DNA of 61,857 bases, counting the filler, from Candidatus Woesearchaeota archaeon (GTDB lineage Archaea; Nanobdellota; Nanobdellia; Woesearchaeales; CAZJJJ01): the NCBI GenBank assembly GCA_046538795.1. It is 7 parts of 7 records of this genome, joined end to end, with 100 filler letters (N's around TTAATTAATTAA, not from the genome) between each part and the next. Parts side by side here need not be neighbours in the genome. Positions count along the whole stretch, not along the records: positions 19,636 to 29,274 come from JBKHIF010000054.1; 6 more parts are not named here. One strand, written 5' to 3'. The notes below the pieces were generated by a model, which saw only the letters and a program-made list of their open reading frames with translations, did no database searches and was not told the DNA's origin. The position numbers and the translations under genes were made by a program. The stretch's first letter is position 1. Each line of letters opens with the position of its first letter. Below, piece by piece: positions 1,703 to 32,801 of the stretch.

Positions 1703-4700
1703 TTAGGATAAGTTTTCAAGACTTATATTTGAAACAATGGACTCTTCAGGCACATTTTCAGCAATTTCGTGTGAATTTTCGTTTTCTGAATAAGTTTCAT
1801 TCAGGACTGTTTCTTCAGAAACACCTTCCCAATTAATCTTCCAGATGATTATTCTTCCGCCTGTAACTTGGACTGAATCATAAAGCTTGTCAAAATGATT
1901 AAGCCCTTTTCCTTCATGATAGAATAATCTTGTAAACATTCCGCCGACAAGAAGAGGATCAAGCATTATAGTGCTGTACGTGTTGCCATTATCAATCATA
2001 GTGAATGAATAACCTGGATCTTGTCCAGGAAATTCTACTATAGTGAATTTTCCTTCGTCATTATAATAAGATACTGAATTAGGCCTTACCTGACCATCAG
2101 GTGTTTGAATATGTGTATCTCCTGTCTCTTCATTGAAAACAAGCTGTATCTGTCCGTCCTGCACAGCTACCTTGCATTGATGAGTGCTGTTGTCTTTCCT
2201 TGAACAGCCTGAAACTCCTGAGTAATAGCCAGGCCATGGGCTGATCCATTGGTCTGGATTAGCATTTTTTATCTCATAATATAGTGTAGATGCCTCGCTT
2301 TGTGTCTTGTTGTAATTTTCAACAAGATGGTTTATTCCTTCTTCTGGATCAAGCCTGTTTATCTCGAAGTACTGAGTTGCTTTTTCAAAATCCCATGCTC
2401 CAAAATGACCCCAAACACCTGCTTTTCCTACCATATCCTGTGATGTAATATAATATCCTTCAGGAGGATTTTCACAATGTGTGTTTGAGAGAAGTTCAGT
2501 TATTTTTTCTTCTGAAATATTTTCTTCTAGCAAGATTTCTCTTGCATCTTCTTTTGATTGCAAAGGCAATATCTTATCAAGGATTTGTATTGCCTTAAGG
2601 CCGCCATACTCTTCTTCCAATAATTCATAAGCTGAGTTCCATGAGCAATCAATCATTCTCAGTATTCCTAATGAGGTATTCTCATCTTTTTCCAGAAGGC
2701 TTCTTCCTACCCAGTGAGCCATAGGTGTATTTTGAGATGCACCGTCAAAGGTTACGCCCCTATTAGCTATAGCCCTGAACCAGTGCCCGAAATCCCACCA
2801 GGAGGTTATGATTGCATCTGGCTGCGAATCTGCTTTTATTGTCTCAAGACCATTCCACCATGCATCATTCATGCTTGGAATTTCATTCCTTGCTGTTACA
2901 AGTGCATCCTGCCAAGGAGGTGCAAGCACTAAGAGATATATAAGTACCAGCAAAATAGGAGCAGTGATAAATCTGCTTAGGTTAAGCTGCTTTTCTGTAA
3001 CTCTCGTAATAAGTTTGTATGTTATTCCTGCAAACAGTCCTATTGCAATAGCAAATGCAGGCATAAGAAGCATAATAAACCTGACTCCTCTTGTTGAGCC
3101 GAAAATTGTTCCTGCAAACCAGATTATAAGTATGGAAGCATATCTTATGTCTATGTTCTTGGTCTTGTTACGTAAAATAAGAATGCCCTTTATCAGTATA
3201 GGAAGCATCATAAGGATAAGGAATGTTATGTCTCTCATCCCATTCATGACCCTTTCTATAAGGAATATGTAAAATACAGTTGACGCTGAAATATATATAA
3301 TGTCTCTTTTTCTCTGTTCTTTTGAAACATCTTTTTTCAGAAATGAGCACAGTGTCAAAGATATGCCTGTAAGAGAAAGAAGGAACAATAATTTGCCTCC
3401 AATATTATTTATTGTCTGAGGTATGGATGATGGATTAAGTTCAGCAACTGTTGTGAATACATTAGGCCATATTTTTGTGGTTGCAACATCCTTAAGTTCA
3501 ATTATTACTTTTGGAGATGCAAAAAGTATATCTTTTAGGTATCCGAACCCTCTTCCCCAGGTTACGACTATCAAAGAAAGTACAAGAAACTGGCCAATTA
3601 TTATAAGGGATCTCTGAACTTTCTTGATCCTGAAAAATTTCTTTATGTTTTTTCTTACTATGTGAAAGTGGCTTGCAACAAGATATGTAAGATATACTGC
3701 AATAGATAGCAGGAGGAATAAATATACGAACCACCAGCCTGCCCATGCAAACTTGAAAAGGGCAAGAGTAAGGCATGAGAGTACAACAAGTCCTGTCGCT
3801 TTTTTAAGGTCCTTTGATTCAATTGCCTCTAAAAAGAACCATATTATGAATAGAGGAAGCATTACATTGTATGAGTCTGTGTCTGCAAACCCGCCTGCGG
3901 TTCTTGAAAGGAAAGAAGGATGTATAGCAACGATTGTTGCAGCTACAAAACCCGCAAGATTTCCTCCTCTTTTTTTTGCTATGAAAAATGCAGGTATAAC
4001 TCCCAGTGTTGCAAGTATTATAGGTATATAAAAAGTGCTTGTCCATATATCTGCATCTGGATTGAAAAAAGACCATACTTTATAGAAATAAGCATCAAAA
4101 TACATGTGAAATTCAGAATTTATTGTTGTTCCTCTTGGTGCATACATGTGTTCTGTAAATGGTTTTCCGTTTCGTAATTCTGTTCCCGGGTGGCCGTTTT
4201 CAAGTATGTTTCTTGCAAAATAGACCCAGAAGTATGGGTCGATCGCAAGAAGATATGTCTGTCCTGAATCATCTTTCATCCTTGATTTGAAATAATTAGA
4301 TGCTTCGGTTATTGCTGTCTCGTACTGTTCTTTATTATTTTCAATATAATCATTAATCTGCTCGTTAATGAGCTGGTTTTTGTTTTGCTGGGGAAGATTT
4401 GGATATTGCTGATTGATCTGCGCTGCAATTTCATTTCTTAAATTTGTTCTTATGGTGTTTTCTGCCCAATCGTCTGTTATTGGAAGATAAAGAGGCATAG
4501 CTCTAAGGAAAATGCTTAATATTATTGGAATAAGGATAAGAAATAATGTGCTGTACCTTTTAGTGAATATCTTTATGCTGTTCCATGTGTTTTTAAGATC
4601 AATTTCTTCATCTTTTTCATCATTGTTAGTTTTTTGTTCACTTTCATGATGTTTTTTATGATGTTTTATTTCATGGATGTTTTCTGCATCTCTTTTTTCT

Positions 4701-4807
4701 GCATGATCATGGGAATTCGCTTTGTTTTTTGCTTTGTCTTTGGAGAAAAAAGTTTTGATTTTTGAAAAATCAATCACAACATCATCATCTCTTTCATTAT
4801 CAGCCAT
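1703..4807 (-). CDS. aglB: Oligosaccharyltransferase AglB (STT3 family)
   Basis: LLAIDPY, GFADTD, TVAEL, WWDFGHW and DMVGK motifs; multi-TM N-terminal half; 1034 aa. Confidence 0.95.
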   Translation of the reverse strand: MADNERDDDVVIDFSKIKTFFSKDKAKNKANSHDHAEKRDAENIHEIKHHKKHHESEQKTNNDEKDEEIDLKNTWNSIKIFTKRYSTLFLILIPIILSIFLRAMPLYLPITDDWAENTIRTNLRNEIAAQINQQYPNLPQQNKNQLINEQINDYIENNKEQYETAITEASNYFKSRMKDDSGQTYLLAIDPYFWVYFARNILENGHPGTELRNGKPFTEHMYAPRGTTINSEFHMYFDAYFYKVWSFFNPDADIWTSTFYIPIILATLGVIPAFFIAKKRGGNLAGFVAATIVAIHPSFLSRTAGGFADTDSYNVMLPLFIIWFFLEAIESKDLKKATGLVVLSCLTLALFKFAWAGWWFVYLFLLLSIAVYLTYLVASHFHIVRKNIKKFFRIKKVQRSLIIIGQFLVLSLIVVTWGRGFGYLKDILFASPKVIIELKDVATTKIWPNVFTTVAELNPSSIPQTINNIGGKLLFLLSLTGISLTLCSFLKKDVSKEQRKRDIIYISASTVFYIFLIERVMNGMRDITFLILMMLPILIKGILILRNKTKNIDIRYASILIIWFAGTIFGSTRGVRFIMLLMPAFAIAIGLFAGITYKLITRVTEKQLNLSRFITAPILLVLIYLLVLAPPWQDALVTARNEIPSMNDAWWNGLETIKADSQPDAIITSWWDFGHWFRAIANRGVTFDGASQNTPMAHWVGRSLLEKDENTSLGILRMIDCSWNSAYELLEEEYGGLKAIQILDKILPLQSKEDAREILLEENISEEKITELLSNTHCENPPEGYYITSQDMVGKAGVWGHFGAWDFEKATQYFEINRLDPEEGINHLVENYNKTQSEASTLYYEIKNANPDQWISPWPGYYSGVSGCSRKDNSTHQCKVAVQDGQIQLVFNEETGDTHIQTPDGQVRPNSVSYYNDEGKFTIVEFPGQDPGYSFTMIDNGNTYSTIMLDPLLVGGMFTRLFYHEGKGLNHFDKLYDSVQVTGGRIIIWKINWEGVSEETVLNETYSENENSHEIAENVPEESIVSNISLENLS

Positions 4808-19635: not shown

Positions 19636-19636
19636 A

Positions 19637-20734
19637 ATTCATGACTCAAATAGTGAGGGATTAAATCTTAGATTATACGACTATATCGTTGCTTACAATA
19701 ATCTATTCAATAATACTAACAACATATTTTCCTGGGATTTTGATGAAGATAATTTGAACACATGGAACACAACTCTTCAGACAGGAAACAGGATTACTGG
19801 TGCAGGAAGCTATATCGGAGGAAACTATTACGCAACTCCTGCAGGAACCGGATTTTCAGAAACATGTGCAGATGCAGACACAGATGGAATATGTGATTCT
19901 CCTTTCAACTTACTTAATGAATCATCATGTACAGCAGGAGTCGATTGCTCAAACAACACTGATTACCTTCCTTTAAGTAGCGGTTTCGTACCAAATAGTC
20001 CGCCAACAATAGAACTAATATATCCTGGTGACGGAAACTCAACAATAAATAGGACACCTACACTCATATGGAATGCAACTGATGATGATGGAGATCAGAT
20101 GAATTTCACAATAAACATAACTTGCCATCCTGCATGTTCAGATGATAATAGGTATTATGAGACTGGATTTACAGACCAGTTCAACTACACGATACCAGTT
20201 GATCTTAAGTATCTCTGGGATGACAACTACTATTACAATTGGACTGTCAGGGCCTATGATGGAATGTTATATAGTGACTGGGCGCCTGAATGGAATTTCT
20301 CTGTTAAATCGCTTGTGATGTTAACTTTAGATCCAAGTACAATACACTTTGGGACAGCATCTGTAAACGAGTCAAATTCAACAACAGACGACATTCCTCT
20401 TCCTATAGGGATACATAATGATGGAAACTGTTATCTTAATATCAGCTTTGAAACTGATGATTACCTATGGGATTCGGTCGAGTCTCCAAGCGACTACCAT
20501 TTATTAAAGACAGATTATCTTGGGACAGAAACAAGCGCATTTGATTATGCACAGTCAACAACATCGTGGACACAGGTAAGTACGGCAAACAACACAATAG
20601 TAGCTTACTTAAATTATTCAGAAAACAACAACTCTGCTGAACTAGACATGAACCTGACTGTTCCCTTTGCAGAACCGACAGGACTAAAGAATCTTACATT
20701 TACTATAGTAGGTGAGTATGTTTCAGTCAATTAA
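19637..20734 (+). CDS. Surface protein, 5' truncated: end of NosD/CASH beta-helix, Ig/Fn3-like domain, C-terminal pilin-like beta-sandwich
   Basis: YNNLFNN..GGNYYATPAGTGFSETCADADTDGICD (NosD-type end); NSPPTIEL..WNATDDDGD..YNWTVRAYDG; C-terminal IHFG..IHNDGN..LTVP..G; frame open from the contig edge. Confidence 0.8.
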   Translation: MHDSNSEGLNLRLYDYIVAYNNLFNNTNNIFSWDFDEDNLNTWNTTLQTGNRITGAGSYIGGNYYATPAGTGFSETCADADTDGICDSPFNLLNESSCTAGVDCSNNTDYLPLSSGFVPNSPPTIELIYPGDGNSTINRTPTLIWNATDDDGDQMNFTINITCHPACSDDNRYYETGFTDQFNYTIPVDLKYLWDDNYYYNWTVRAYDGMLYSDWAPEWNFSVKSLVMLTLDPSTIHFGTASVNESNSTTDDIPLPIGIHNDGNCYLNISFETDDYLWDSVESPSDYHLLKTDYLGTETSAFDYAQSTTSWTQVSTANNTIVAYLNYSENNNSAELDMNLTVPFAEPTGLKNLTFTIVGEYVSVN

Positions 20735-21959
20735 CTTAAAGAGGAACTGTATGATTATTTTATTAATCCTGGCTTTAGCAGTATTATCTGCAAAATCCTC
20801 ATCTGCGCTTGGAGTAAGCCCTGGAAAAGCTACGATACATTTTGAGCCTGGGCTTGAAAAAACAGTTGATGTTGAGATATATAATAACGATAACAAGGCA
20901 TTTACTGGAGTTATATATGTGGAAGGCGAGCTAAAAGATTATATCACTTTATCGACAGAAGAGATTGTTTTTGGAGATGATGATAATATCAAGTCTTTTT
21001 CATATACAGTTTCTCTTCCTCAAGAGATGGAAAAACCAGGAGTATTGGCAGGAGATATAAAAATCGTGCAAAAGATTGATGATAGTGATGAAAATCTTAA
21101 TCTCAGGGCAAATGTTGCAGTTAAGACAAAAATATATCTAAACATACCATATCCTGGAACATATGCAGAAGCAGAATTCAAGCTAAGTGAATTTATGAAA
21201 CCAGAGGAAAATCTTGATTTCTTCATCTCAGTATTTAATCTTGGAAAAGAGAACATAAAAAAATATTTTGCAACTGTTGAGATATATGATCCTGATGGAG
21301 AACTCATAAAATCCATAACAACAGAACCAAAATCAGTGAGCAAGGCGCAGAAAGGAGAGCTTGTGATATCCATGCCTCCTCATTCTCTTCCTTTAGGCGA
21401 TTATACTGTTAAAGCTATCTTGTCTTATGATGGAAAGACGCTTGAGCTTCCTGCAAAACCTTTTAGGCTTGAAGGTTCATTTATTGATCTTCTCTTTGTG
21501 ATTGCAGATGAATACTCTTTAGGAAGTGTTGCGAAATTCACTTTCTTGCTGAAAAATGTAGGCAACCGGATGGTCAAAGATGTTTTTTCCAGAATGGTTC
21601 TGAATGATAACTCAGATAATGTTGTCGCTAATATAAAGAGCTATAGTGTTGATCTGAATAAAGAGGAAACAAAAGAAGTCGTAGCTTACTGGGATACCAA
21701 GAATATTGATATTGGAGAATATCATGGAAAAGTGAATGTTAACTATGAAGATGAGGCTTTTGATAGAGAAGTAAAACTTATGCTTGAAGAAGACAATATA
21801 GAAGTTGAAGTGATCGATCAGATATCAGGTATGGTTGCAGGAGATCAGGTTGAAACAAATTTTGCAGACAGTTCTATTATAAAGATAAGTCTGTTCCTTA
21901 TAATCACTCTTCTTGTCGTGATCCTTGTAGTTATGCTTAGGAAGAAAAAAGAAAATTGA
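20718..21959 (+). CDS. Secreted multi-Ig-fold protein with C-terminal membrane anchor (DUF916/chaperone-like), paralog of 23176..24360
   Basis: Signal peptide then ALGVSPG; IPYPGTYA linker; C-terminal TM followed by RKKKEN. Confidence 0.75.
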   Translation: MFQSINLKRNCMIILLILALAVLSAKSSSALGVSPGKATIHFEPGLEKTVDVEIYNNDNKAFTGVIYVEGELKDYITLSTEEIVFGDDDNIKSFSYTVSLPQEMEKPGVLAGDIKIVQKIDDSDENLNLRANVAVKTKIYLNIPYPGTYAEAEFKLSEFMKPEENLDFFISVFNLGKENIKKYFATVEIYDPDGELIKSITTEPKSVSKAQKGELVISMPPHSLPLGDYTVKAILSYDGKTLELPAKPFRLEGSFIDLLFVIADEYSLGSVAKFTFLLKNVGNRMVKDVFSRMVLNDNSDNVVANIKSYSVDLNKEETKEVVAYWDTKNIDIGEYHGKVNVNYEDEAFDREVKLMLEEDNIEVEVIDQISGMVAGDQVETNFADSSIIKISLFLIITLLVVILVVMLRKKKEN

Positions 21960-22109
21960 CCTTAATAATTTTATGATATCAATTAATTATAAATATTAAT
22001 ATCTTTATTTTCTGAACAAAAAACGGTTATTTTCATCCCTTGCTGGTTAATAGTTATCCTGTTTAAAAATCAAAAACTATTTAAACCATTACTTTCATAG
22101 AAATTAGAT

Positions 22110-22334
22110 ATGGAACAGATTCCAAACAAGCTGGTATTGACTCTATTAGTGTTAATGACACTTATAACTATGATCAGTACATTCTCATTTTTTCACGCTC
22201 ATAACAGCCTTCCTTCAGATGATAATCCTTCAGATGGTATTCAGGGTCTTGCAGTGCAGACAAGTTCTCCTGAATCAGGGCGGGTTGCTATAAAGATAAT
22301 CAATAATAATCTTAATAAAAGCATCAATGATTAA
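22110..22334 (+). CDS. Small membrane protein with IQGLA motif and terminal beta-strand
   Basis: 74 aa, TTTAAA box about 30 bp upstream, one TM, GIQGLAV...SGRVAIKII. Confidence 0.65.
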   Translation: MEQIPNKLVLTLLVLMTLITMISTFSFFHAHNSLPSDDNPSDGIQGLAVQTSSPESGRVAIKIINNNLNKSIND

Positions 22335-22470
22335 AATGGCAAAACATAGCAGTTTTTGATTGCAGGTGTTACTATTTTTTGAACAAGAGGTCAAAAAATG
22401 GCAAAACAAAGCAATCGTTGATTGCAGGCTTTACCATTTTTTAAATCGGAGATTAAAAAAATGGCAAAAA
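22333..22470 (+). repeat. Degenerate tandem repeat (62-63 bp period); each full unit is a hairpin carrying a 7-codon mini-ORF
   Basis: AAAATGGCAAAA with ATG at 22336, 22398 and 22461; TTGATTGCAGG conserved in units 1 and 2. Confidence 0.8.
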
Positions 22471-23162
22471 AACAAAAGACAAACAACTTCAGCATATCTA
22501 ACCAAACTGTTATTGTAACATTACTTATTGCTATGGCGATATCTATAGGCGGAACTCTTACTGTTCTGATAAAACTATCAAACCTTCCTGATGCAAGAAC
22601 TCCCATTACAGGAATGGCAGATACTCAGTATGGTTCAGCATCTATAGAAATATCTCAGCAGGTTTCAATTGAACTTGATCCGAACAATAATTCTATTGAT
22701 TTCGGGACATGCAATGCTCCTGATAATCCTTATGTTGTAAATATATCTTCAGACATGACTGCACAGGAAATAAATGATACTATAATAATAAACTGCACAG
22801 ATGCAAATACTCCTTCAAAGATAAGGATTCTTAATACTGGAAACGTTGAAACAGACATAAATGTTGTATCTGACAGAAATTCACAGCAGCTTCTGACTTC
22901 GGCATCTGCAGAATTCAAGTGGTTTGCAAAAAATTCCACATTAAACGGCGGCTGTCCTACTCCTGGTCCTTCAGGAGGAATAGACCAAGGCAATTTTGAT
23001 GGAACTGGAGATGACACAGCTGATAATGTCTGTGATGAACTTGGTTTTGGTACTAACAATGCTGTAGATTTTTTTGTCAACTTAACGATACCTTATGATG
23101 CAAGTACAGGTGGATCAGAAGATACCGCAACACTTACATTTTCTGGTTCGGCAGATGACTGA
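22461..23162 (+). CDS. Secreted pilin-like beta-sandwich protein (candidate major fimbrial subunit)
   Basis: MAKKQK start after GGAGA; TM; ITGMA motif; IDFG..ILNTGN..NLTIP..ATLTFSG. Confidence 0.7.
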   Translation: MAKKQKTNNFSISNQTVIVTLLIAMAISIGGTLTVLIKLSNLPDARTPITGMADTQYGSASIEISQQVSIELDPNNNSIDFGTCNAPDNPYVVNISSDMTAQEINDTIIINCTDANTPSKIRILNTGNVETDINVVSDRNSQQLLTSASAEFKWFAKNSTLNGGCPTPGPSGGIDQGNFDGTGDDTADNVCDELGFGTNNAVDFFVNLTIPYDASTGGSEDTATLTFSGSADD

Positions 23163-23175
23163 TTTTAACTGATTT

Positions 23176-24360
23176 ATGATGAGATCTTATAATCTATTTT
23201 TTGTGATTTTCTTAGTATTTTTTTTAAGTTTGCCTATTTCATATGCAATAGGCATATCACCTCCTAATTATAAGGTTGATTTCAAACCAGAATTAAATAC
23301 TTCTTTCCCTTATGTAATATCTAATAACAGAGATTCTAAGATAGAAGTTGAAGTTGTTATAAAAGGAGATCTTTCTGATTATTTATCTCCTTCTGAAAAA
23401 AGTTTCATATTATATGCAGGAGGGTCAAAAACATCTGTCATTAATCTGGATCTTCCACAAAAGCTTGATCCTGGAAATTATACTTCTACTATTCAGTATA
23501 TCGACAGCACCAAGGTGGGTGAAGGAATGTTTCAGGCAAGGACTGCGGTTATCGCATATATAACTGTGATTGTTCCGATTCCAGGAAGATATGCAAAAGT
23601 AAACCTCGAGGTTCCCAATATTAATGAAGGGGAAACAATAGCTTATTTCGCAGAGATTGAAAATATTGCAGAAGAAGACATTGAAAATGCAGTCCTTAGC
23701 ATGAAAATCATTGATTCCAATGGAAAATATATTCGTGAGTTTTCTCACAGGGACATTTCTGTTGACTCACTGAAGAAGACAGTTGTTAACGATTTTTTTG
23801 AAAGTCATGATTTTATCCCTGGAGAATATACTGCTTTCGCAGAACTTGATTTCGGAGGCAAAGAAATGTCTTCAGATGAAGTAACATTTAATATTGGATC
23901 TTATGATGTTGATTTTGTCGGTCATTCTGATACGCTTTATGCAGGCGAGATTTCTCCTTTCAGATCGGTTGTGAAAAGCAAATGGAACTCTCCTATTAAA
24001 GATGTTTCAGTTGATGTAACAATTAATGGTAAAGAACACAGATCTTTGGAAAAAACACTCAAGCCTTTTGAAGAAACAGAATTTCTCATATATGTCGATG
24101 AAAAGTCGCTTGAACCAGGAGATATTGTAGATGCTATCGTTACTGTTCATTTTGGTGATTCAAAAAAATCAGAGAGCCTGAAATTGGATGTGGTTGAAAA
24201 TCCAGAAAAACAGCTTGAAACCGATAATTCTGATGATGAAGACAAAATCGATCTTGCATATATCATGACACTTCCTACAACATACCTTATGATTGCAGTA
24301 ATGATCCTTGTCCTTGTCAACATATATGTGATAATTAATAAGAATAAGAAAAAAAGATAA
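23176..24360 (+). CDS. Secreted multi-Ig-fold protein with C-terminal membrane anchor, paralog of 20718..21959
   Basis: Signal peptide then AIGISPP; VPIPGRYA linker; C-terminal TM followed by KNKKKR. Confidence 0.75.
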   Translation: MMRSYNLFFVIFLVFFLSLPISYAIGISPPNYKVDFKPELNTSFPYVISNNRDSKIEVEVVIKGDLSDYLSPSEKSFILYAGGSKTSVINLDLPQKLDPGNYTSTIQYIDSTKVGEGMFQARTAVIAYITVIVPIPGRYAKVNLEVPNINEGETIAYFAEIENIAEEDIENAVLSMKIIDSNGKYIREFSHRDISVDSLKKTVVNDFFESHDFIPGEYTAFAELDFGGKEMSSDEVTFNIGSYDVDFVGHSDTLYAGEISPFRSVVKSKWNSPIKDVSVDVTINGKEHRSLEKTLKPFEETEFLIYVDEKSLEPGDIVDAIVTVHFGDSKKSESLKLDVVENPEKQLETDNSDDEDKIDLAYIMTLPTTYLMIAVMILVLVNIYVIINKNKKKR

Positions 24361-24361
24361 G

Positions 24362-24775
24362 ATGAAATTATCAAGGTTTATTATTTTAGGGGTGCTTTTA
24401 GTAGTTATTTTGTCGAGCGCAAGCTATCTTATCATGAAGGATTATTATATCTATGATATTGTGATAATACCTGCTGATCTTGAAGTGAATGATTATGTAG
24501 GGTTCAATCTTGATAACGATGCTCTTCATTTCGGTTCTATAAAGAATCAGGGAAATTCCAGAAGAAATATCACAGTAATCAATACCTATGGAAAAACATC
24601 TTTGGTCGTAATTGAAGCTGAAGGTGAAATCGCTTCATGGATTTCTGCTTCTGAGAACTCTTTTTTGCTTGAAGAAGATACATCAAGACAGGTTGAATTC
24701 ATGATCGAAACTCCTGAATTTGTTGATTATGGGAATTATACAGGAAATGTCACGATAACTTTTAAACGTCCATAG
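24362..24775 (+). CDS. Small membrane-anchored Ig/pilin-like protein
   Basis: N-terminal TM; LHFGSI..ITVIN..TPEFVDYGNYTGNVTITF. Confidence 0.7.
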   Translation: MKLSRFIILGVLLVVILSSASYLIMKDYYIYDIVIIPADLEVNDYVGFNLDNDALHFGSIKNQGNSRRNITVINTYGKTSLVVIEAEGEIASWISASENSFLLEEDTSRQVEFMIETPEFVDYGNYTGNVTITFKRP

Positions 24776-24886
24776 TTATTTTATTCACACTTTTTAGTCT
24801 TAAAATTGTTAATTTTTAATTTATTTTGTTTGTTATTTTGATTTTTTTGCAAATCTTTATATAATATTTAGTCTTATTTATTTGAT

Positions 24887-25156
24887 ATGGTTGTTGTTGA
24901 TTGCCCTGGATCTGGATTTCATGAGGAGCTTCTGGATGAGATAGAGGAAATAATCAATGTTGAAAAAGACTCTTTTTCTAAAAAAAAAGTACCTATCATA
25001 TTTGATGGAAAACAGTATGCTATTAAGATTCCGAAAAAAATTGCAGAATCAGCAGGGATTTCTGAAAATGATCAATTTGAATTCTATATCAAACAAGATG
25101 TGAAGGAGAAGATAAACACAGAATTACGAGGCAAGCTGGTAAAAGATGAAACATAA
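24887..25156 (+). CDS. AbrB/MazE/SpoVT-like DNA-binding protein
   Basis: IIFDGKQYAIKIPKKIAESAGISENDQFEF swapped-hairpin pattern; TTTATATA box upstream. Confidence 0.7.
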   Translation: MVVVDCPGSGFHEELLDEIEEIINVEKDSFSKKKVPIIFDGKQYAIKIPKKIAESAGISENDQFEFYIKQDVKEKINTELRGKLVKDET

Positions 25157-25409
25157 TATATTACACAGGACAGAAAAAGAGCTTATCCGCATCTTGTTTA
25201 GGGAAAGAAGGCCTCTTACCATAAGAGAGATTGCTATGATTTCTGATATGAGCTGGATAACTGCAAGAAAATATCTAAACAGTCTTATCAAAAATAATAT
25301 CTGTGAAACAATAGTGGAAGAAAAAAGGCCTAAATTCAGATTGAATCCTGATCTCATATGTGAATTATTACGAAGAAAGCAGGAAAATATGGTGAAGAAT
25401 GAAGATTGA
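25146..25409 (+). CDS. Winged helix-turn-helix protein
   Basis: EKELIRIL..PLTIREIAMISDMSWITARKYLNSL; overlaps both neighbours by 11 bp. Confidence 0.75.
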   Translation: MKHNILHRTEKELIRILFRERRPLTIREIAMISDMSWITARKYLNSLIKNNICETIVEEKRPKFRLNPDLICELLRRKQENMVKNED

Positions 25410-27762
25410 TAACAAGACTATACTGGAAATTGTAATTTTCATGGTATTTGTATCCATCATGATGAATTTTTTGACTCTTAGTCTTATAAGCCATTCATAT
25501 AGTGAAAAAACAGGACTTCAGGGCAAGGCCATAGATGGAGAAGCGACAGTTGGCATATGTATTAATCATCGTCCTGTATTCAACTGGCAGACTTGTGACA
25601 ATCTTAGTTTGATTGCATCTGTTAATGGAATCTTGATAAAAAATTATAGATGCCATGTAAACGTTACTGATCCAGATCCTGATCAATCTTTGATATTTAG
25701 TACAAATTCATCCTATTCAGCTATAGGTCCCTGGCCTGGAAACATAACTTTGTTCGGAAATATAAGCCAGCCTGGAAATCCTGCACCAGACAATATCACA
25801 ATGTGGATTAACGTATCAGATAATTCCAGCTGCTCTAATTCTGAAATTATCGTTGATGTTTTGTTTTCTAATCTTACATTCATAAGCGGTGGTGTTTATC
25901 TGATTCAGGAATATCCGTCTGATGATAATGATGAGCTTAAGTTAAAAGAAGGATTCACCACGTTCCATAGATCTTTGGATGAATATTTTTTAGATGCAGA
26001 TGGCTTTCCTCTTGATTTCGAGTTCATATATCATGATATGCACTGCTTAAATATTGAAGTCGACATAGACAATGTATCTAATTTTGTAAGATACAGTGTT
26101 CCTTATGGCTTTAATACAGAAGATACCGGACCTTGTCATGCTCAGTTCAAAGCGACAAATCCATTTAAAATTTGGAATGAGACAAATACTTTTCTGATAG
26201 AAGTTGAGGCAACTGAACAGCCTGAAGAACAGGATGATACCTCTGAAAATACAGAGGACAATTCAGATGGTGGTTCAGGATCAAGTTCTGGCGGCGGAGG
26301 TTCAAGCGGCGGCGGAGGTTCAGGTGTGCCGCAGCCATCAAGGCAATGCTGGCTTAGGGATGTTGTATGTGATGACTGGAGCGATTGCAGCTATGTCCCT
26401 AATTCGACTGATAATGTTGACTATTATGATATTTTACACGACGGGGAACAAAGAAGAACATGTACCTGGTCCACAAATTGTCCGGGAGAGATGCAGCCTG
26501 ATCTTAAGAAAATCTGTGATTACAAGCCTAATTGTCATGATTCTATGAAAAACTGCCATGAGCTTCCTGATGGAAGCCTTTTCTGTGAAGAAGGAATAGA
26601 CTGCGGAGGGCCATGCCAGACTCCTTGCCCTACATGTGATGATTTAATCAAAAATCAGGGTGAAACAGGGATAGACTGCGGCGGCCCTTGCGACCCTTGT
26701 CCAACTTGTTCAGACGGCATACTTAACTGTCATAGGATTTCTAAGGATGAAGAATTATGCGAAGAGAAAATAGACTGCGGAGGTCCTTGCTCTCCCTGCG
26801 CAACATGCGATGATAAGATCAGGAATTGCCATATGCTTGATAACAATACATTATCCTGTGAAGAAGATGTTGATTGCGGAGGTCCCTGCGATCCCTGTCT
26901 TACGGATAAGCAGAAGCAGACAAGACGAATAATCTCTATTTCAACAATTGCCCTTACTTCGCTATTGTTTGGGCTTTCTATTGTTACAGGAAAAGTAGCT
27001 TATGCTAAAGCTCTTATTTTTATTCAGAAAAAATACATGGATTTTATCAAGGCAGCAATAATGAAAAGGCGTGATATGTATAAAAATAAATACCTTGCAT
27101 TCTTTGATTCTCAGATAAGGCAGCTGATCCCTGATTTTGATGCTGTTACAAATAAAGAAACTAAAAAATATGGAGACCTGCTTCTCCTTGATGACAGCAA
27201 TGCGTTATATAATATTGATCGTTATTCAGTTTCTTTCAACAATGATTATGCAAACATATTGCTGGATGATTCTATACGGACGATAAACTATGCTATTGAT
27301 ATTAATGATATTGATTCGGGAAAACAGGTCCTTGAAGAGATGCTGAAGCGCAGCCTTAAACCTGAATACAGGATAAGCAAGAGAAGCACAGCAAGAGTAT
27401 GGAATCCATCATGGGGTTTCAGGGACGGTGTTCAGTATGATACAGTGGGAGACAAGACCATAGCAAGATCTGTTGAATATATTCTTTCATTTATGCCTAA
27501 GAATCGTGATGAGGCTCAGCAGATAATAAACATTCTTGAGGAGTATGCTCCTAACAAAGAGGGAATAACAGTTATGCGTTCTCAGGACATACGCGTTACA
27601 GGAGACCATCCGATACTTGACTATGAGCGTGTTGATCTGAACGTAAAATCAGTCAATGGACAAAAGATCATGGTAATCACAAGAGACAAGCCGCTTACAG
27701 GATTCAAGAGCAAGAAGATATGGGTAAATCCGAAACTATTAAGAGCAATGAAAATTGAATAA
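25399..27762 (+). CDS. Membrane-spanning surface protein: Ig-like domains, Gly/Ser linker, four Cys-rich repeats, TM, predicted cytoplasmic domain
   Basis: N-terminal TM with LQGKA motif; DPDPD and DADG motifs; GGSGSSSGGGG linker; four E-x-[IV]DCGGPC repeats; second TM at about aa 512-540. Confidence 0.8.
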   Translation: MKIDNKTILEIVIFMVFVSIMMNFLTLSLISHSYSEKTGLQGKAIDGEATVGICINHRPVFNWQTCDNLSLIASVNGILIKNYRCHVNVTDPDPDQSLIFSTNSSYSAIGPWPGNITLFGNISQPGNPAPDNITMWINVSDNSSCSNSEIIVDVLFSNLTFISGGVYLIQEYPSDDNDELKLKEGFTTFHRSLDEYFLDADGFPLDFEFIYHDMHCLNIEVDIDNVSNFVRYSVPYGFNTEDTGPCHAQFKATNPFKIWNETNTFLIEVEATEQPEEQDDTSENTEDNSDGGSGSSSGGGGSSGGGGSGVPQPSRQCWLRDVVCDDWSDCSYVPNSTDNVDYYDILHDGEQRRTCTWSTNCPGEMQPDLKKICDYKPNCHDSMKNCHELPDGSLFCEEGIDCGGPCQTPCPTCDDLIKNQGETGIDCGGPCDPCPTCSDGILNCHRISKDEELCEEKIDCGGPCSPCATCDDKIRNCHMLDNNTLSCEEDVDCGGPCDPCLTDKQKQTRRIISISTIALTSLLFGLSIVTGKVAYAKALIFIQKKYMDFIKAAIMKRRDMYKNKYLAFFDSQIRQLIPDFDAVTNKETKKYGDLLLLDDSNALYNIDRYSVSFNNDYANILLDDSIRTINYAIDINDIDSGKQVLEEMLKRSLKPEYRISKRSTARVWNPSWGFRDGVQYDTVGDKTIARSVEYILSFMPKNRDEAQQIINILEEYAPNKEGITVMRSQDIRVTGDHPILDYERVDLNVKSVNGQKIMVITRDKPLTGFKSKKIWVNPKLLRAMKIE
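26533..26898 (+). repeat. Intragenic Cys-rich repeats (4 units, C-x-D..N..E-x-x-DCGGPC-x-PC)
   Basis: GACTGCGGAGG/GATTGCGGAGG-type DNA units and DCGGPC peptides recur four times. Confidence 0.85.
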
Positions 27763-27765
27763 AAG

Positions 27766-29274
27766 ATGTTGAAAAAAGAGACTATTTCAGGAAAATGCAG
27801 GATTGGGATTTTTCTAGTTGTTTCCATGTTATTTTTTGTGTTTTTTTCAGGTTTTGTCTTTGCAGCAGATCCTGTTTTTATAGATCCTTCGACTACCACA
27901 ACATTCAATATAACAGAAGATGAGTTGTTTACTTATAATATAACTGCAATTGATTCTGATGGAGATTATCCTATAAATTTCACAGATACTTCACATGATG
28001 CAGGTATTGGATTTTTTTGTTTTAACAAAAAACAATTTAATGGATCTATAACAACAATAAATTTTACTCCGACAAATGAATATGTAGGTTTTTACAGCAT
28101 AGATATGATCGCTAAAGATTCTGTTGATGAGTCAGATATTCTGACACTTAAATTCAATGTATCAAACTCAAATGATAATCCTTATGTAATCTCGGCTTAT
28201 CCTTCTCAGGATGTATTTCTAGATGAAAATTCAACAATCTTTTTTAACATTACAATAGGAGACGATGACCTTATACATGGAGATAATCTGAGTTTTGCCT
28301 GGTTTATAGATAATGAAACAAATCCTCTTCTTAACTCAAGCAAGATTAATTCTACATTTTCAAAAGCAAACTTCACACCTACATTTTTTCACTACAGACC
28401 TTATCCTTATGAGGTAACTGTTGTTGTGAATGATTCTTCTTTTGGACAGATAAACTATACCTGGAACCTGACAGTAAACAATGTTAACAGAGAACCTGTT
28501 TTCAGCGGAATTATAGAAAACATAACCTGGTGGGAGGATACTGACCTTGTAAACAATATAACTCTTGCTGATTATTTTTCTGATCCAGATGTCAATTCAA
28601 GTTATTGTGAACCAGACACAGGAAACTGCCTTGATTTTTCAAGAAATCTTGTTTCAGGAGATCTTTCTGACATAAATGTTGATATAAATGATTCAACATC
28701 AAATGTCAGTTTTTATCCGTCTGAAAACTGGTTTGGAACCCTTAACATAACTTTTTCTGTTACTGACGGATTTGATTCAGCACAAAGCAATGATATTATG
28801 CTTGAAGTTATCAATGAGAATGATCCGCCTATAATTAGTCCTATTGAAAACCAGACCACATTTGTATCTTCATTATTTTCCTATCAGGTGCAGGCGACAG
28901 ATCCTGATTTTCACACCATGACCTATTATGTCGATTCACCGACTCTTGGAGGTATTGATATTAATTCAACCACAGGTCTTATTGAATATGAGCCGCTTCT
29001 TGCTGATTCAGGAAACCACACAATTAATGTTACTGTGGCAGATGAGTTCAGCCTGAACAGTTCAGTCGAATTTAATCTGGAAATAATAGGAAACAGCCGG
29101 CCTGTTATACAAGATTTTGGAAATATCTCTGTTATGCAGTTCCAGACTCTTGACATACAAATTAATGCAACAGATGCAGATGGCGATGATCTGTTTTTCT
29201 GGATGAACTCATCTCTTCTTTCAAAAAATGCATCTGACAGTACTTCTGCAAATTATACAATAACGCCTGTAGAT
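27766..29274 (+). CDS. Large secreted cadherin/Ig-like repeat protein (3' truncated)
   Basis: Signal peptide; repeated N-D/R-x-P starts and D-x-D-G-D motifs about every 100 aa; many N-x-S/T sequons. Confidence 0.85.
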
Positions 29275-31571: not shown

Positions 31572-32801
31572 ATGGATAAAGAGGAACAGATCAAAAGACT
31601 TGCTGAAAACCTTAAAAACTGCGGCAGCTGCGCAAGCATGGAAGATGCAATAAGGACAGCTACACGCATGCTCGGATTTGATGATTCAATGCTTACAAAT
31701 GATCTCATGAACAAGGAAATGAGCAAGTTTTCAGGTCAGAATCTGGTAACTGTCCAAATCAATTCAGGGGTTGTAGCCCAGCCTCCGAAAAAAGAAGAGC
31801 CATCAAAGGTAAGAAGTGCTAAAGATCTTTCAAGAGAACTTAGCATGCAAAAGGCTTTTGATACTCTTTCGCAGAGGATGTCATTTTCTGATTACCAGAG
31901 AAACAGCATGATGAATGAAATCAACTCAGGAATAAACTCCCTGGGATCAGACAGAAGCCAGGAAAACAACAAAAACAACAACATGGATAACGCAAACAGC
32001 ATGAATATCCATGAGACACAGTTTCCGCCTCAGTTCAGGAAACCTGAAATCATCCAAAAAGAGCCCTCATTGATAAATGAAAGACAAAATCAGGACTTCA
32101 GGCAGGAAAACATGCAAAACCAAAATAGCAATAATAATTATGATAATATGAATTATAATAATTACAACAATAATGCAACACAAAACCAGGGATTTCCTTC
32201 TCAGCAGTCAAATCAAAGGCAGGCTGAACAGGTAAGCAATAACAATTTCATCAACGAACAATCCAGTACTTTCGGTCATAACCATGTTGCTGAACAAGAT
32301 ATATTCAGTTCACAAAATACATCAGAAAACAAAAAAGAAGAATTCTCTTTGTTTGAAGACATCCCTGAAATAAATGAAAGCCAGTTCAAAGAAAAAAACG
32401 AAAAAACAGGAAACAACAGTCAGGAAGATATATTCAATCAATACAGCCAGAAAGCGCAGACAACTTCAGGAAATCAGGTATCTTTTGAAGAGAAAAAAAT
32501 TCCTGATGAGGATTTCTTTGGTGAACCTTCCAAAAGCATAATGCAGGAAAGAAATGAAATGCCTGCTAATAATTTTCAGAACAATTCGTTTCAGCAGCCT
32601 CAGTCAATGAATATGCATCAAAACAGCATGCAAAAGCAAAGAGAAAGCTTTTTTGAAAAAAAGACGATAAACCAAGCTGATTTGAATAACAGCAGCCAGG
32701 ACAAAAATCAAGCAAACAATCAGCAGCAGCAGCCAAAGCAGTCTGCTGAAGAAAGTATTGATCTTACTGAGATGTTTAATTTTGCTAAAAGAAACAGGTG
32801 A
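31572..32801 (+). CDS. Q/N-rich low-complexity hypothetical protein
   Basis: 409 aa, AGGTGA RBS, helical N-terminus, long N/Q tracts, C-terminal IDLTEMFNF. Confidence 0.8.
   Translation: MDKEEQIKRLAENLKNCGSCASMEDAIRTATRMLGFDDSMLTNDLMNKEMSKFSGQNLVTVQINSGVVAQPPKKEEPSKVRSAKDLSRELSMQKAFDTLSQRMSFSDYQRNSMMNEINSGINSLGSDRSQENNKNNNMDNANSMNIHETQFPPQFRKPEIIQKEPSLINERQNQDFRQENMQNQNSNNNYDNMNYNNYNNNATQNQGFPSQQSNQRQAEQVSNNNFINEQSSTFGHNHVAEQDIFSSQNTSENKKEEFSLFEDIPEINESQFKEKNEKTGNNSQEDIFNQYSQKAQTTSGNQVSFEEKKIPDEDFFGEPSKSIMQERNEMPANNFQNNSFQQPQSMNMHQNSMQKQRESFFEKKTINQADLNNSSQDKNQANNQQQQPKQSAEESIDLTEMFNFAKRNR

Follow-up and report, generated by a model that had tools for sequence, protein, structure and literature searches.

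A predicted chaperone-assisted donor-strand pilus in a gene cluster of a Woesearchaeota-type archaeon

A 9,639-bp contig of a Candidatus Woesearchaeota archaeon (JBKHIF010000054.1, assembly GCA_046538795.1) carries a gene cluster that was analysed as a candidate pilus system. It occupies positions 19636-29274 of the window, which is the whole stretch of DNA under analysis (61,857 nucleotides including filler, joined from seven parts of this genome), and is labelled C34 here. A total of ten open reading frames (ORFs), lettered A to J, were found, all on the plus strand. The contig ends cut inside A, of which the 5′ part is lost, and inside J, of which the 3′ part is lost, and no contigs overlapping either end were found in the genome. 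The same stretch is present in pieces in an assembly from the run of a second study, with four single-base differences. An initial annotation had described a whole contig of co-oriented envelope genes. The common orientation was confirmed for 10 of 10 ORFs, but two products, the AbrB/MazE-like one of 24887 and the winged helix-turn-helix (HTH)-like one of 25146, are cytoplasmic inserts. The motifs which had been quoted from 22461, the C-terminus of 19637 and 24362 were all found in place.

A, 19637-20734, plus strand: 3′ end of a large secreted protein, with a beta-helix end, a FnIII-like domain and an acceptor-only pilin domain
B, 20718-21959, plus strand: signal peptide, three immunoglobulin (Ig) domains and C-terminal transmembrane (TM) helix; predicted chaperone for A
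C, 22110-22334, plus strand: 74-aa membrane peptide with N-terminal TM helix and donor-like strand; predicted base anchor or terminator
D, 22461-23162, plus strand: TM/signal helix, TGxA motif, donor strand and incomplete Ig acceptor; predicted major pilin
E, 23176-24360, plus strand: signal peptide, three Ig domains and C-terminal TM helix (residues 367-392); predicted fold-complementing chaperone
F, 24362-24775, plus strand: N-terminal TM helix, one strand and an ASH/PapD-like Ig domain akin to E domain 1
G, 24887-25156, plus strand: AbrB/MazE-like (PF04014, E 9e-5, below the Pfam cut-off)
H, 25146-25409, plus strand: winged-HTH-like (HTH_24, E 1e-3, below the Pfam cut-off)
I, 25399-27762, plus strand: N-terminal TM helix, GxA, donor-like strand, Ig domains, Cys-rich repeats and second TM helix
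J, 27766-29274, plus strand: cadherin/Big_9 repeat surface protein, 3′ part cut

The TM/signal helix of D (residues 14-40) is followed by the TGxA motif (residues 50-53, 22608-22619), by a donor strand G58-x-A60-x-I62-x-I64 (22632-22652) and by an acceptor domain (residues 66-233). The protein contains two conserved Cys pairs and eight N-glycosylation sequons; D and A are both sequon-rich, with a median of 4.4 sequons per 100 aa in the D family. In an AlphaFold2 model of the monomer (pLDDT 86.6 overall) the helix spans residues 14-40 and a beta-sandwich begins at about residue 68, while the blocks at residues 41-60 (pLDDT 58-64) are extended without assigned secondary structure and form a free N-terminal strand. 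D is thus not modelled as a self-contained monomer, the outcome that would have spoken against a donor-strand subunit. It is predicted to be an Ig-like domain missing its last strand, donor and acceptor at once, and the model, the donor motif and the gene order described below support it in the role of major subunit that the initial annotation had assigned to it.

A single-sequence search found D alone, and a HMMER library search led to 237 relatives, of which the best 150 were listed and 125 aligned. Pattern scans with D of collections of genome contigs and metagenome contigs gave no match, and because of this the full-length A was not recovered. Nothing significant was obtained when the PDB was searched with the D and E profiles. 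According to Foldseek and VIA the nearest folds of D are TasA, CanA/Hyper2, FimG/FimF, Saci_0406 and CsuA/B. The best Foldseek E value was 7e-3, for TasA, which has a VIA Z of 6.3 (rmsd 3.7, 136 residues aligned); the best VIA scores (Z 6.9-7.4, rmsd 4.5-4.8, about 139 aligned) belong to cannula/Hyper2 tube subunits, and FimG reached Z 6.6. The structural check that had been proposed against TasA, CsuA/B, AbpA and WxL proteins therefore returned donor-strand subunits as nearest neighbours, but all of these matches are weak (Z<8). The long-WxL chain of 9i25 and the Pam pilins are absent among the fold matches listed for D, and a likeness to them is still possible. Neither PF12389 (TasA) nor PF13731 (WxL) matched any of the 125 D members at E 0.01, and no W-x-L was present in the last 30 aa of 99 D proteins. 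The WxL neighbour of D in the Atlas scores 0.79 by features, with a TM-score of 0.45.

The D family conserves TG-x-A at residues 50-53 and G58-x-[VA]-x-[LIV]-x-[IV]64. A position-specific scoring matrix of the donor strand exceeded the 95th percentile of shuffles in 93/99 D, 46/62 C and 12/28 I proteins; the counts were 2/56 for F, 9/89 for B/E and 1/24 for J. A GxA-type motif after the helix, which may be a signal-peptidase site, is present in 79/99 D, 16/28 I and 7/62 C. Only one archaeal signal peptidase was found in the genome, on another contig (C36). The acceptor is marked by a NxGN motif in 75/99 D and 29/33 A but only 1/56 F.

Direct-coupling analysis of 243 D sequences (effective number, Meff, 225) recovered plausible strand pairings. 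Covariation between donor and groove was found for I62-L208 (z 5.7, rank 11), A60-A231 (z 5.1, rank 17) and E63-G217 (z 3.7), and the top five donor-body pairs had a mean of 4.36 compared to 3.19 (maximum 3.87) in 40 shuffles. These pairs would put residue 63 at the opposite end from residue 68, an arrangement that suits the groove of a neighbour better than the protein's own. From covariation and topology, the D strand would lie along the groove of a neighbouring subunit.

The C-terminal 144 aa of A are homologous to D (hhalign 99.3%, E 2e-20), and a search of the genome with the D profile finds A at E 2e-13. One domain had been proposed as common to 22461, the 19637 C-terminus and 24362; the homology of D and A bears this out, but 24362 is nearer to E domain 1. 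The acceptor domain of A (about 20300-20731) is preceded by a middle domain that appears FnIII-like and by a NosD match at residues 16-70. As A is cut at the contig start, only the last piece of its beta-helix is visible. No donor motif precedes the acceptor in 23 of 23 A proteins in which the boundary was found (33 examined). Homologues in fetched loci reach 3,206 aa, several being cut at the locus edges, and the payloads of the 22 scanned out of 33 comprise LamG (13), beta-helix/NosD (5), subtilase+FG-GAP (1) and tail-fibre-like (1) domains, with none recognised in 5. Profile comparison and donor-motif scan agree with the tip adhesin that had been proposed for 19637, in the form of an acceptor-only protein carrying a variable payload; the architecture is observed and the role at the tip is a prediction.

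C and I show the reverse arrangement. C has a donor-like strand at residues 56-64 (22275-22301) and no acceptor domain, and 36 of 62 C proteins contain two donor motifs. In I the donor-like strand lies at residues 46-54, the D profile matches the first 57 positions at E 0.003, and a second TM helix near residue 510 is followed by a cytoplasmic tail; this second helix is present in 26/26 I homologues shorter than 1,000 aa. By analogy, I may be a donor-only membrane anchor with a role like that of PamR or ElrB. For C the architecture is likewise observed, and we infer a role as donor-only anchor or terminator. Of the products named earlier as minor or anchoring parts (22110, 24362 and 25399), C and I hence stand as candidate donor-only anchors, but F lacks a D-type donor (2/56).

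Two genes flanking 22461, namely 20718 (B) and 23176 (E), had been called paralogues, which is correct (25% identity, E 8e-19). A relationship of D to E was rejected by profile-profile comparison (0.8%, unrelated). The AlphaFold2 model of E (pLDDT 93.2) consists of three Ig domains and a C-terminal helix, with a donor hairpin at residues 113-128 (23512-23559). Among 48,161 chains the top VIA match is WxLIP of Enterococcus faecium (9i1y; Z 14.8, rmsd 9.7, 212 aligned, 19% identity). Vpr (12.7) and chaperones of chaperone-usher systems come next; FimC, SafB, CfaA, PapD and CsuC score Z 10-12 at 7-11% identity. In the Foldseek ranking the first places go to Hydin-type chains from cilia, and WxLIP comes tenth (E 9e-11, 17-18% identity). 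PF11797 (DUF3324) is matched by 8 of 60 E/B members with 16-24 bits against a cut-off of 28.9, and PF06030 (DUF916) is not among the matches listed for E/B members. One homologue carries the NCBI name DUF916 protein.

A complex of E (residues 25-245) and D (residues 52-233) was modelled in three runs together with three controls. The E:D scores were 0.80, 0.78 and 0.80, and the best of the three controls gave 0.00; the mark used for these scores is reached by 116 of 157 solved pairs and by 2 of 215 mismatched pairs. Contacts recur between the runs at a rate of at least 94%, and the partner pLDDT is 77 or higher. E25-31 and E113-128 contact D65-72, 77-82 and 221-233, and D52-64 is not named in the interface. 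In the model E120-126 runs parallel to D224-229, the last D strand. The same parallel register, with the donor strand of the pilin left free, is reported for the chaperone ElrE (10.64898/2026.10.17.759780). The multimer check suggested for 23176 with 22461 consequently came out in favour of a chaperone register, 0.80 compared to 0.00 for the control. An assembly chaperone is supported by fold and complex model in the case of 23176 and by paralogy in the case of 20718; from this paralogy and its adjacency to A, B could be dedicated to the tip protein.

To judge the distribution of the cluster, genomes were searched with the D profile. Within the order, 104 of 201 genomes gave matches, three of the 104 being unpublished and weak matches possibly being A-type domains, as did 93 of 177 near-complete genomes. 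Among 251 genomes sampled from the phylum there were 131 with a match, 24 of these in other orders of the class. The A-acceptor profile matched 41 of 151 genomes drawn from the class at E 1e-10. The 33 relatives common to both searches were tabulated, 7 relatives less than 85% complete being left out. Of the 17 with a D-type match, 16 also have a strong B/E match (E <1e-50), compared to 0 of 16 without; kin are not independent in this comparison, and 11 of the 16 had supplied sequences to the profile. Searched with the single D protein, none of the six genomes from the family to which the window belongs (72-98% complete) gave a match, and with the profile 0 of 2 did, so that the distribution is patchy; no strong E/B match was seen in this family either. 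Most neighbours of D and E in the Atlas belong to Nanobdellota, and named B-type homologues come from Nanoarchaeia, Woesearchaeota and Pacearchaeota.

The gene order A-B-C-D-E-F-I-J is conserved across Nanoarchaeia. In 68 loci, whose genes were classed by our own profile cut-offs, the numbers were 57 for C-D, 54 for D-E-F, 45 for C-D-E-F, 18 for A-B-C-D-E-F and 7 for the full order to I-J; as no locus is longer than 20 kb and many stop where their contig ends, these counts are lower bounds in a biased sample. C is followed by D in 61/62, A by a gene of the B/E class in 31/33 and I by J in 21/28 cases, and F follows E in 54 loci. The expectation that the gene set would be kept together in Woesearchaeota and Pacearchaeota is thereby borne out in several orders.

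Several families known from other pili were looked for. Pfam-type family searches gave no match to a sortase or a secretion ATPase among the ten products, which agrees with the earlier statement that no type IV pilus ATPase or sortase is visible on the contig; for sortase the search was limited to these ten. A class III signal peptide, assembly ATPase or platform of type IV pili was not present among the ten products either, and the two PF00437 ATPases of the genome lie on other contigs (C26, C3). No usher family was found among the ten products or the conserved classes of the 68 loci, to which these searches were limited. LPxTG is absent from the last 60 aa of every C, D, F, I and J homologue.

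Taken together, the cluster probably encodes an usher-less, chaperone-assisted pilus built by donor-strand exchange. In the following scheme the domain architecture, synteny, folds and E:D model are computed results, while cleavage, D-D exchange, assembly order and adhesion are inferred. The subunits would be exported by Sec, and D would be released at or near TGxA by the housekeeping signal peptidase. Membrane-anchored E, as modelled with controls, would fill the groove of D with its hairpin strand 120-126 parallel to D 224-229. The donor strand (G-x-[VA]-x-[LIV]-x-[IV]) of the following D subunit would then displace that of E in antiparallel orientation, and the chain would grow at the membrane; this exchange between D subunits is suggested by the conserved motif, by weak covariation and by the precedent of Elr. 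A, with a groove and without a donor, would begin the fibre and end up at the tip with its lectin or beta-helix payload, handled by B. C and/or I, which keep donor and TM helix and lack the groove, would stop elongation and hold the fibre at the membrane. The fibre would probably serve for attachment, either to a surface or to a host cell.

Several observations weigh against this interpretation. All fold matches of D stay below Z 8 and none reaches a Foldseek E of 0.001, so that they may reflect a common beta-sandwich. The GxA of D lies about ten residues past the helix and is missing in 20 of 99 D proteins, and the cluster has no peptidase. The covariation is shallow (Meff 225), one shuffle in 40 equalled its best single donor pair, and the shuffles take no account of kinship. 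Domains of the Hydin/ASH, MSP and transglutaminase kinds also appear in the fold list of E, whose WxLIP match has an rmsd of 9.7 Å. The E:D model may have passed owing to its likeness to solved chaperone-pilin complexes, and its calibration is only roughly valid with the alignments used. The loci compared for synteny were hand-picked from strong D matches on long contigs. C of the window has a GxA-like stretch, unlike most C proteins (7/62), and F is left without explanation in the scheme. Finally, the E:D heterodimer is the sole interaction modelled, and no fibre has been seen.

The last point would also suit a static, membrane-tethered display platform, in which D keeps its helix, E and B complete folds for good and A sits in a short fixed complex, and so would the long hydrophobic helix at the start of D, C, F and I in a cluster without a peptidase. 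A platform was the older view of WxL clusters, and for Elr it has been replaced by a pilus (10.64898/2026.10.17.759780). We regard it as unlikely here, because it leaves unexplained the conserved free donor strand of D as well as the split between acceptor-only A and donor-only C and I, and because GxA is found in 79/99 D but 7/62 C.

The identity of the top structural neighbours of D (TasA, CanA and Hyper2) raises the question of a chaperone-free fibre of the TasA, AbpA or cannula type, where D would assemble by itself and E and B would nucleate or anchor it like TapA or AbpB. Archaeal strand-donation fibres have so far been described without an identified chaperone (PMC9245690, PMC9715654, PMC12337348). 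Nevertheless, such a fibre appears very unlikely: the best fold of E is WxLIP, E is modelled to bind D in the parallel chaperone register, PF12389 is found in 0 of 125 D members, and strong E/B homologues occur in 16/17 genomes with a D-type domain and 0/16 without, kin not being independent. Extremely unlikely in our view is a wider lattice, tube or S-layer-like coat formed by strand donation. The highest VIA scores, those of cannula/Hyper2 (Z 6.9-7.4), tie with linear pilins (FimG Z 6.6); an acceptor-only giant and donor-only anchors suit the two ends of a linear chain, and D, although sequon-rich as such a coat might be, is present in 93/177 near-complete genomes, unlike an essential coat.

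The predicted pilus works like the Elr/WxL pili and the Pam pili of bacteria in the candidate phyla radiation (CPR) and is a member of neither, as it has no WxL motif, only sub-cut-off Pfam matches, no LPxTG and a single-domain pilin; both are better precedents than TasA or AbpA. In Elr/WxL of Enterococcus faecalis and other Bacillota (10.64898/2026.10.17.759780), which also lacks an usher, ElrA parallels A in role, ElrD parallels D, ElrE parallels E/B and ElrB parallels C/I. Shared with Elr are the parallel pairing of the chaperone strand with the last pilin strand (here from a model), a similar donor pattern G/A-x-V/I-x-hydrophobic, a chaperone with the fold of WxLIP that is anchored by a C-terminal TM helix, both features seen in E, and, by architecture, an acceptor-only tip and a donor-only terminator. 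In contrast to Elr, the cluster shows no WxL motif or Pfam match, WxLIP_HBD below the cut-off, no LPxTG and, among the ten products, no sortase; its chaperones have three Ig domains and form two paralogues, one beside the tip gene, and F, I and J are extra conserved genes. The Elr system was found only in Bacillota among 4,698 RefSeq genera (10.64898/2026.10.17.759780).

Pam pili (PMC13278184) likewise belong to ultrasmall symbionts and combine donor-strand exchange without an usher with an acceptor-only tip. Their two TM-anchored PapD-like chaperones, PamC and PamD, resemble B and E (of which only E was folded), and the terminator PamR, with N-terminal strand, Ig-type domains and C-terminal TM helix, resembles I. 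Pam pilins differ in having two domains, 39-55 kDa and an internal linker strand, compared to one domain of about 170 aa in D. Furthermore, Pam is reported from CPR only (PMC13278184), whereas a giant adhesin of many domains forms the predicted tip here. The accessible text of the Elr (10.64898/2026.10.17.759780) and Pam (PMC13278184) reports contains no mention of a DPANN system.

Chaperone-usher pili (Fim, Pap, Csu, CFA/I) share the incomplete Ig pilin, the fold of chaperone domain 1 and the logic of tip and terminator, and differ in that the cluster products include no usher, an outer membrane is lacking and the chaperone is membrane-anchored. Cannulae are further archaeal filaments built by strand donation. 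Archaeal filaments of this kind show a weak fold likeness to D (Z 5.5-7.4). AbpA (PMC9245690), the Saci_0406 thread (PMC9715654) and Tafi (PMC11821415, PMC12337348) are archaeal strand-donation fibres not of type IV; threads, bundling pili and Tafi have no identifiable chaperone in the accessible descriptions, and Tafi uses Tat and has its own signal peptidase. Term look-ups in the accessible text of these papers returned no mention of DPANN. Mth60 fimbriae of Methanothermobacter are Sec-dependent and not of type IV, and modelling suggested a chaperone role for Mth59 (PMC10370314). Mth60 is reported to self-assemble, little is said to be known of what Mth59 does, and the structure is unsolved (PMC10370314). 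Mth60/Mth59 may be an earlier archaeal example, and with Mth59 suggested as a chaperone any claim to be first in Archaea needs this caveat. E-like ESM Atlas clusters in Methanobacteriota (features 0.90-0.93) may point to a relative of this system close to fimbriae of the Mth60 type. Filaments of unknown make-up have been reported on Nanobdella (10.1101/2023.10.27.564410).

The papers listed by literature searches, largely from outside subscription journals, included no description of such a system in Woesearchaeota or Pacearchaeota. Woesearchaeota- and Pacearchaeota-type archaea are abundant and presumed symbionts, and to our knowledge their mode of attachment to partners is still open. In roughly half of the searched genomes the cluster provides a candidate attachment organelle, and tip payloads such as LamG, beta-helix and subtilase on a constant acceptor domain could serve as host-finding probes. 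Donor-strand pili with membrane chaperones have so far been shown experimentally only in bacteria. Tentatively, the cluster might be the first pathway in Archaea to build pili with true fold-complementing chaperones, occurring in roughly half of the Woesearchaeota-type and in many Pacearchaeota-type genomes. Each subunit class would then have its own chaperone (B at the tip, E in the shaft), the two strands of the C peptide could bind two fibre ends, and a giant, exchangeable tip protein would determine which host is bound. If true, usher-less pilus assembly by membrane chaperones, reported in 2026 for Bacillota and CPR, would extend to Archaea, and it could then be asked if the ultrasmall symbionts of the two domains have such pili in common or evolved them by convergence.

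Two tandem 62-nt copies (22333-22456, 79% alike) lie directly upstream of D. Each holds a 7-codon mini-ORF and begins like the start-codon context of D, and the copies are probably relic duplications of its translation-initiation region. A scan with sigma-70 promoter and terminator models, the former unsuited to archaea, stayed at chance level. Relatives often carry tandem repeats of C-D or D-D: in L017, L053, L076, L083 and L065 either two or three D paralogues lie in tandem or the C-D unit is repeated, and some genomes contain 8-12 D-type matches. Such copies suggest variable shaft subunits.

F matches D only in the TM helix, strand and FG (94%, 62 columns, profile-profile), but it matches E domain 1 with 97% (E 4e-11) as well as Hydin/ASH PapD-like repeats. 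Its N-terminal strand is not D-like, and a third D-type pilin was ruled out by the likeness to E domain 1 and Hydin and by the scarcity of NxGN. In 33 of the 40 members with a GxYxG strand (of 56) the chain ends 7-12 residues past it, and hence F has no chaperone hairpin. It may be a membrane adaptor or co-chaperone, and F and J appear to be conserved accessories. G and H are a cytoplasmic insert between F and I; as conserved parts they were ruled out, no homologue being found in 48 loci searched. A lone MazE-like gene also lies near the Pam operon (PMC13278184), which is probably coincidence. A 929-aa ORF open at its 5′ end, on the minus strand at the start of contig C71, matches positions 382-1186 of the J profile (E 1e-145) without DNA overlap; J probably continues there with the C-terminal two thirds of its family and ends in a TM helix.

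In several genomes of other orders an extra TM protein of 165-171 aa, absent from the window, is encoded between A and B (L107:7988-8491, L111:12309-12806, L113:7747-8262, L114:11573-12088). A number of the giant A and J proteins start with a common basic cytoplasmic segment with a GPY-Y motif before the first TM helix (L104:3301-12921, L107:1-7980, L111:12808-18774, L112:12060-17942, L113:16021-20001). Elsewhere in the window, positions 1703-4807, on another contig of the same genome, encode an STT3/AglB oligosaccharyltransferase of 1,034 aa, and positions 31572-32801 encode a 409-aa Asn/Gln-rich low-complexity protein with no Pfam match.

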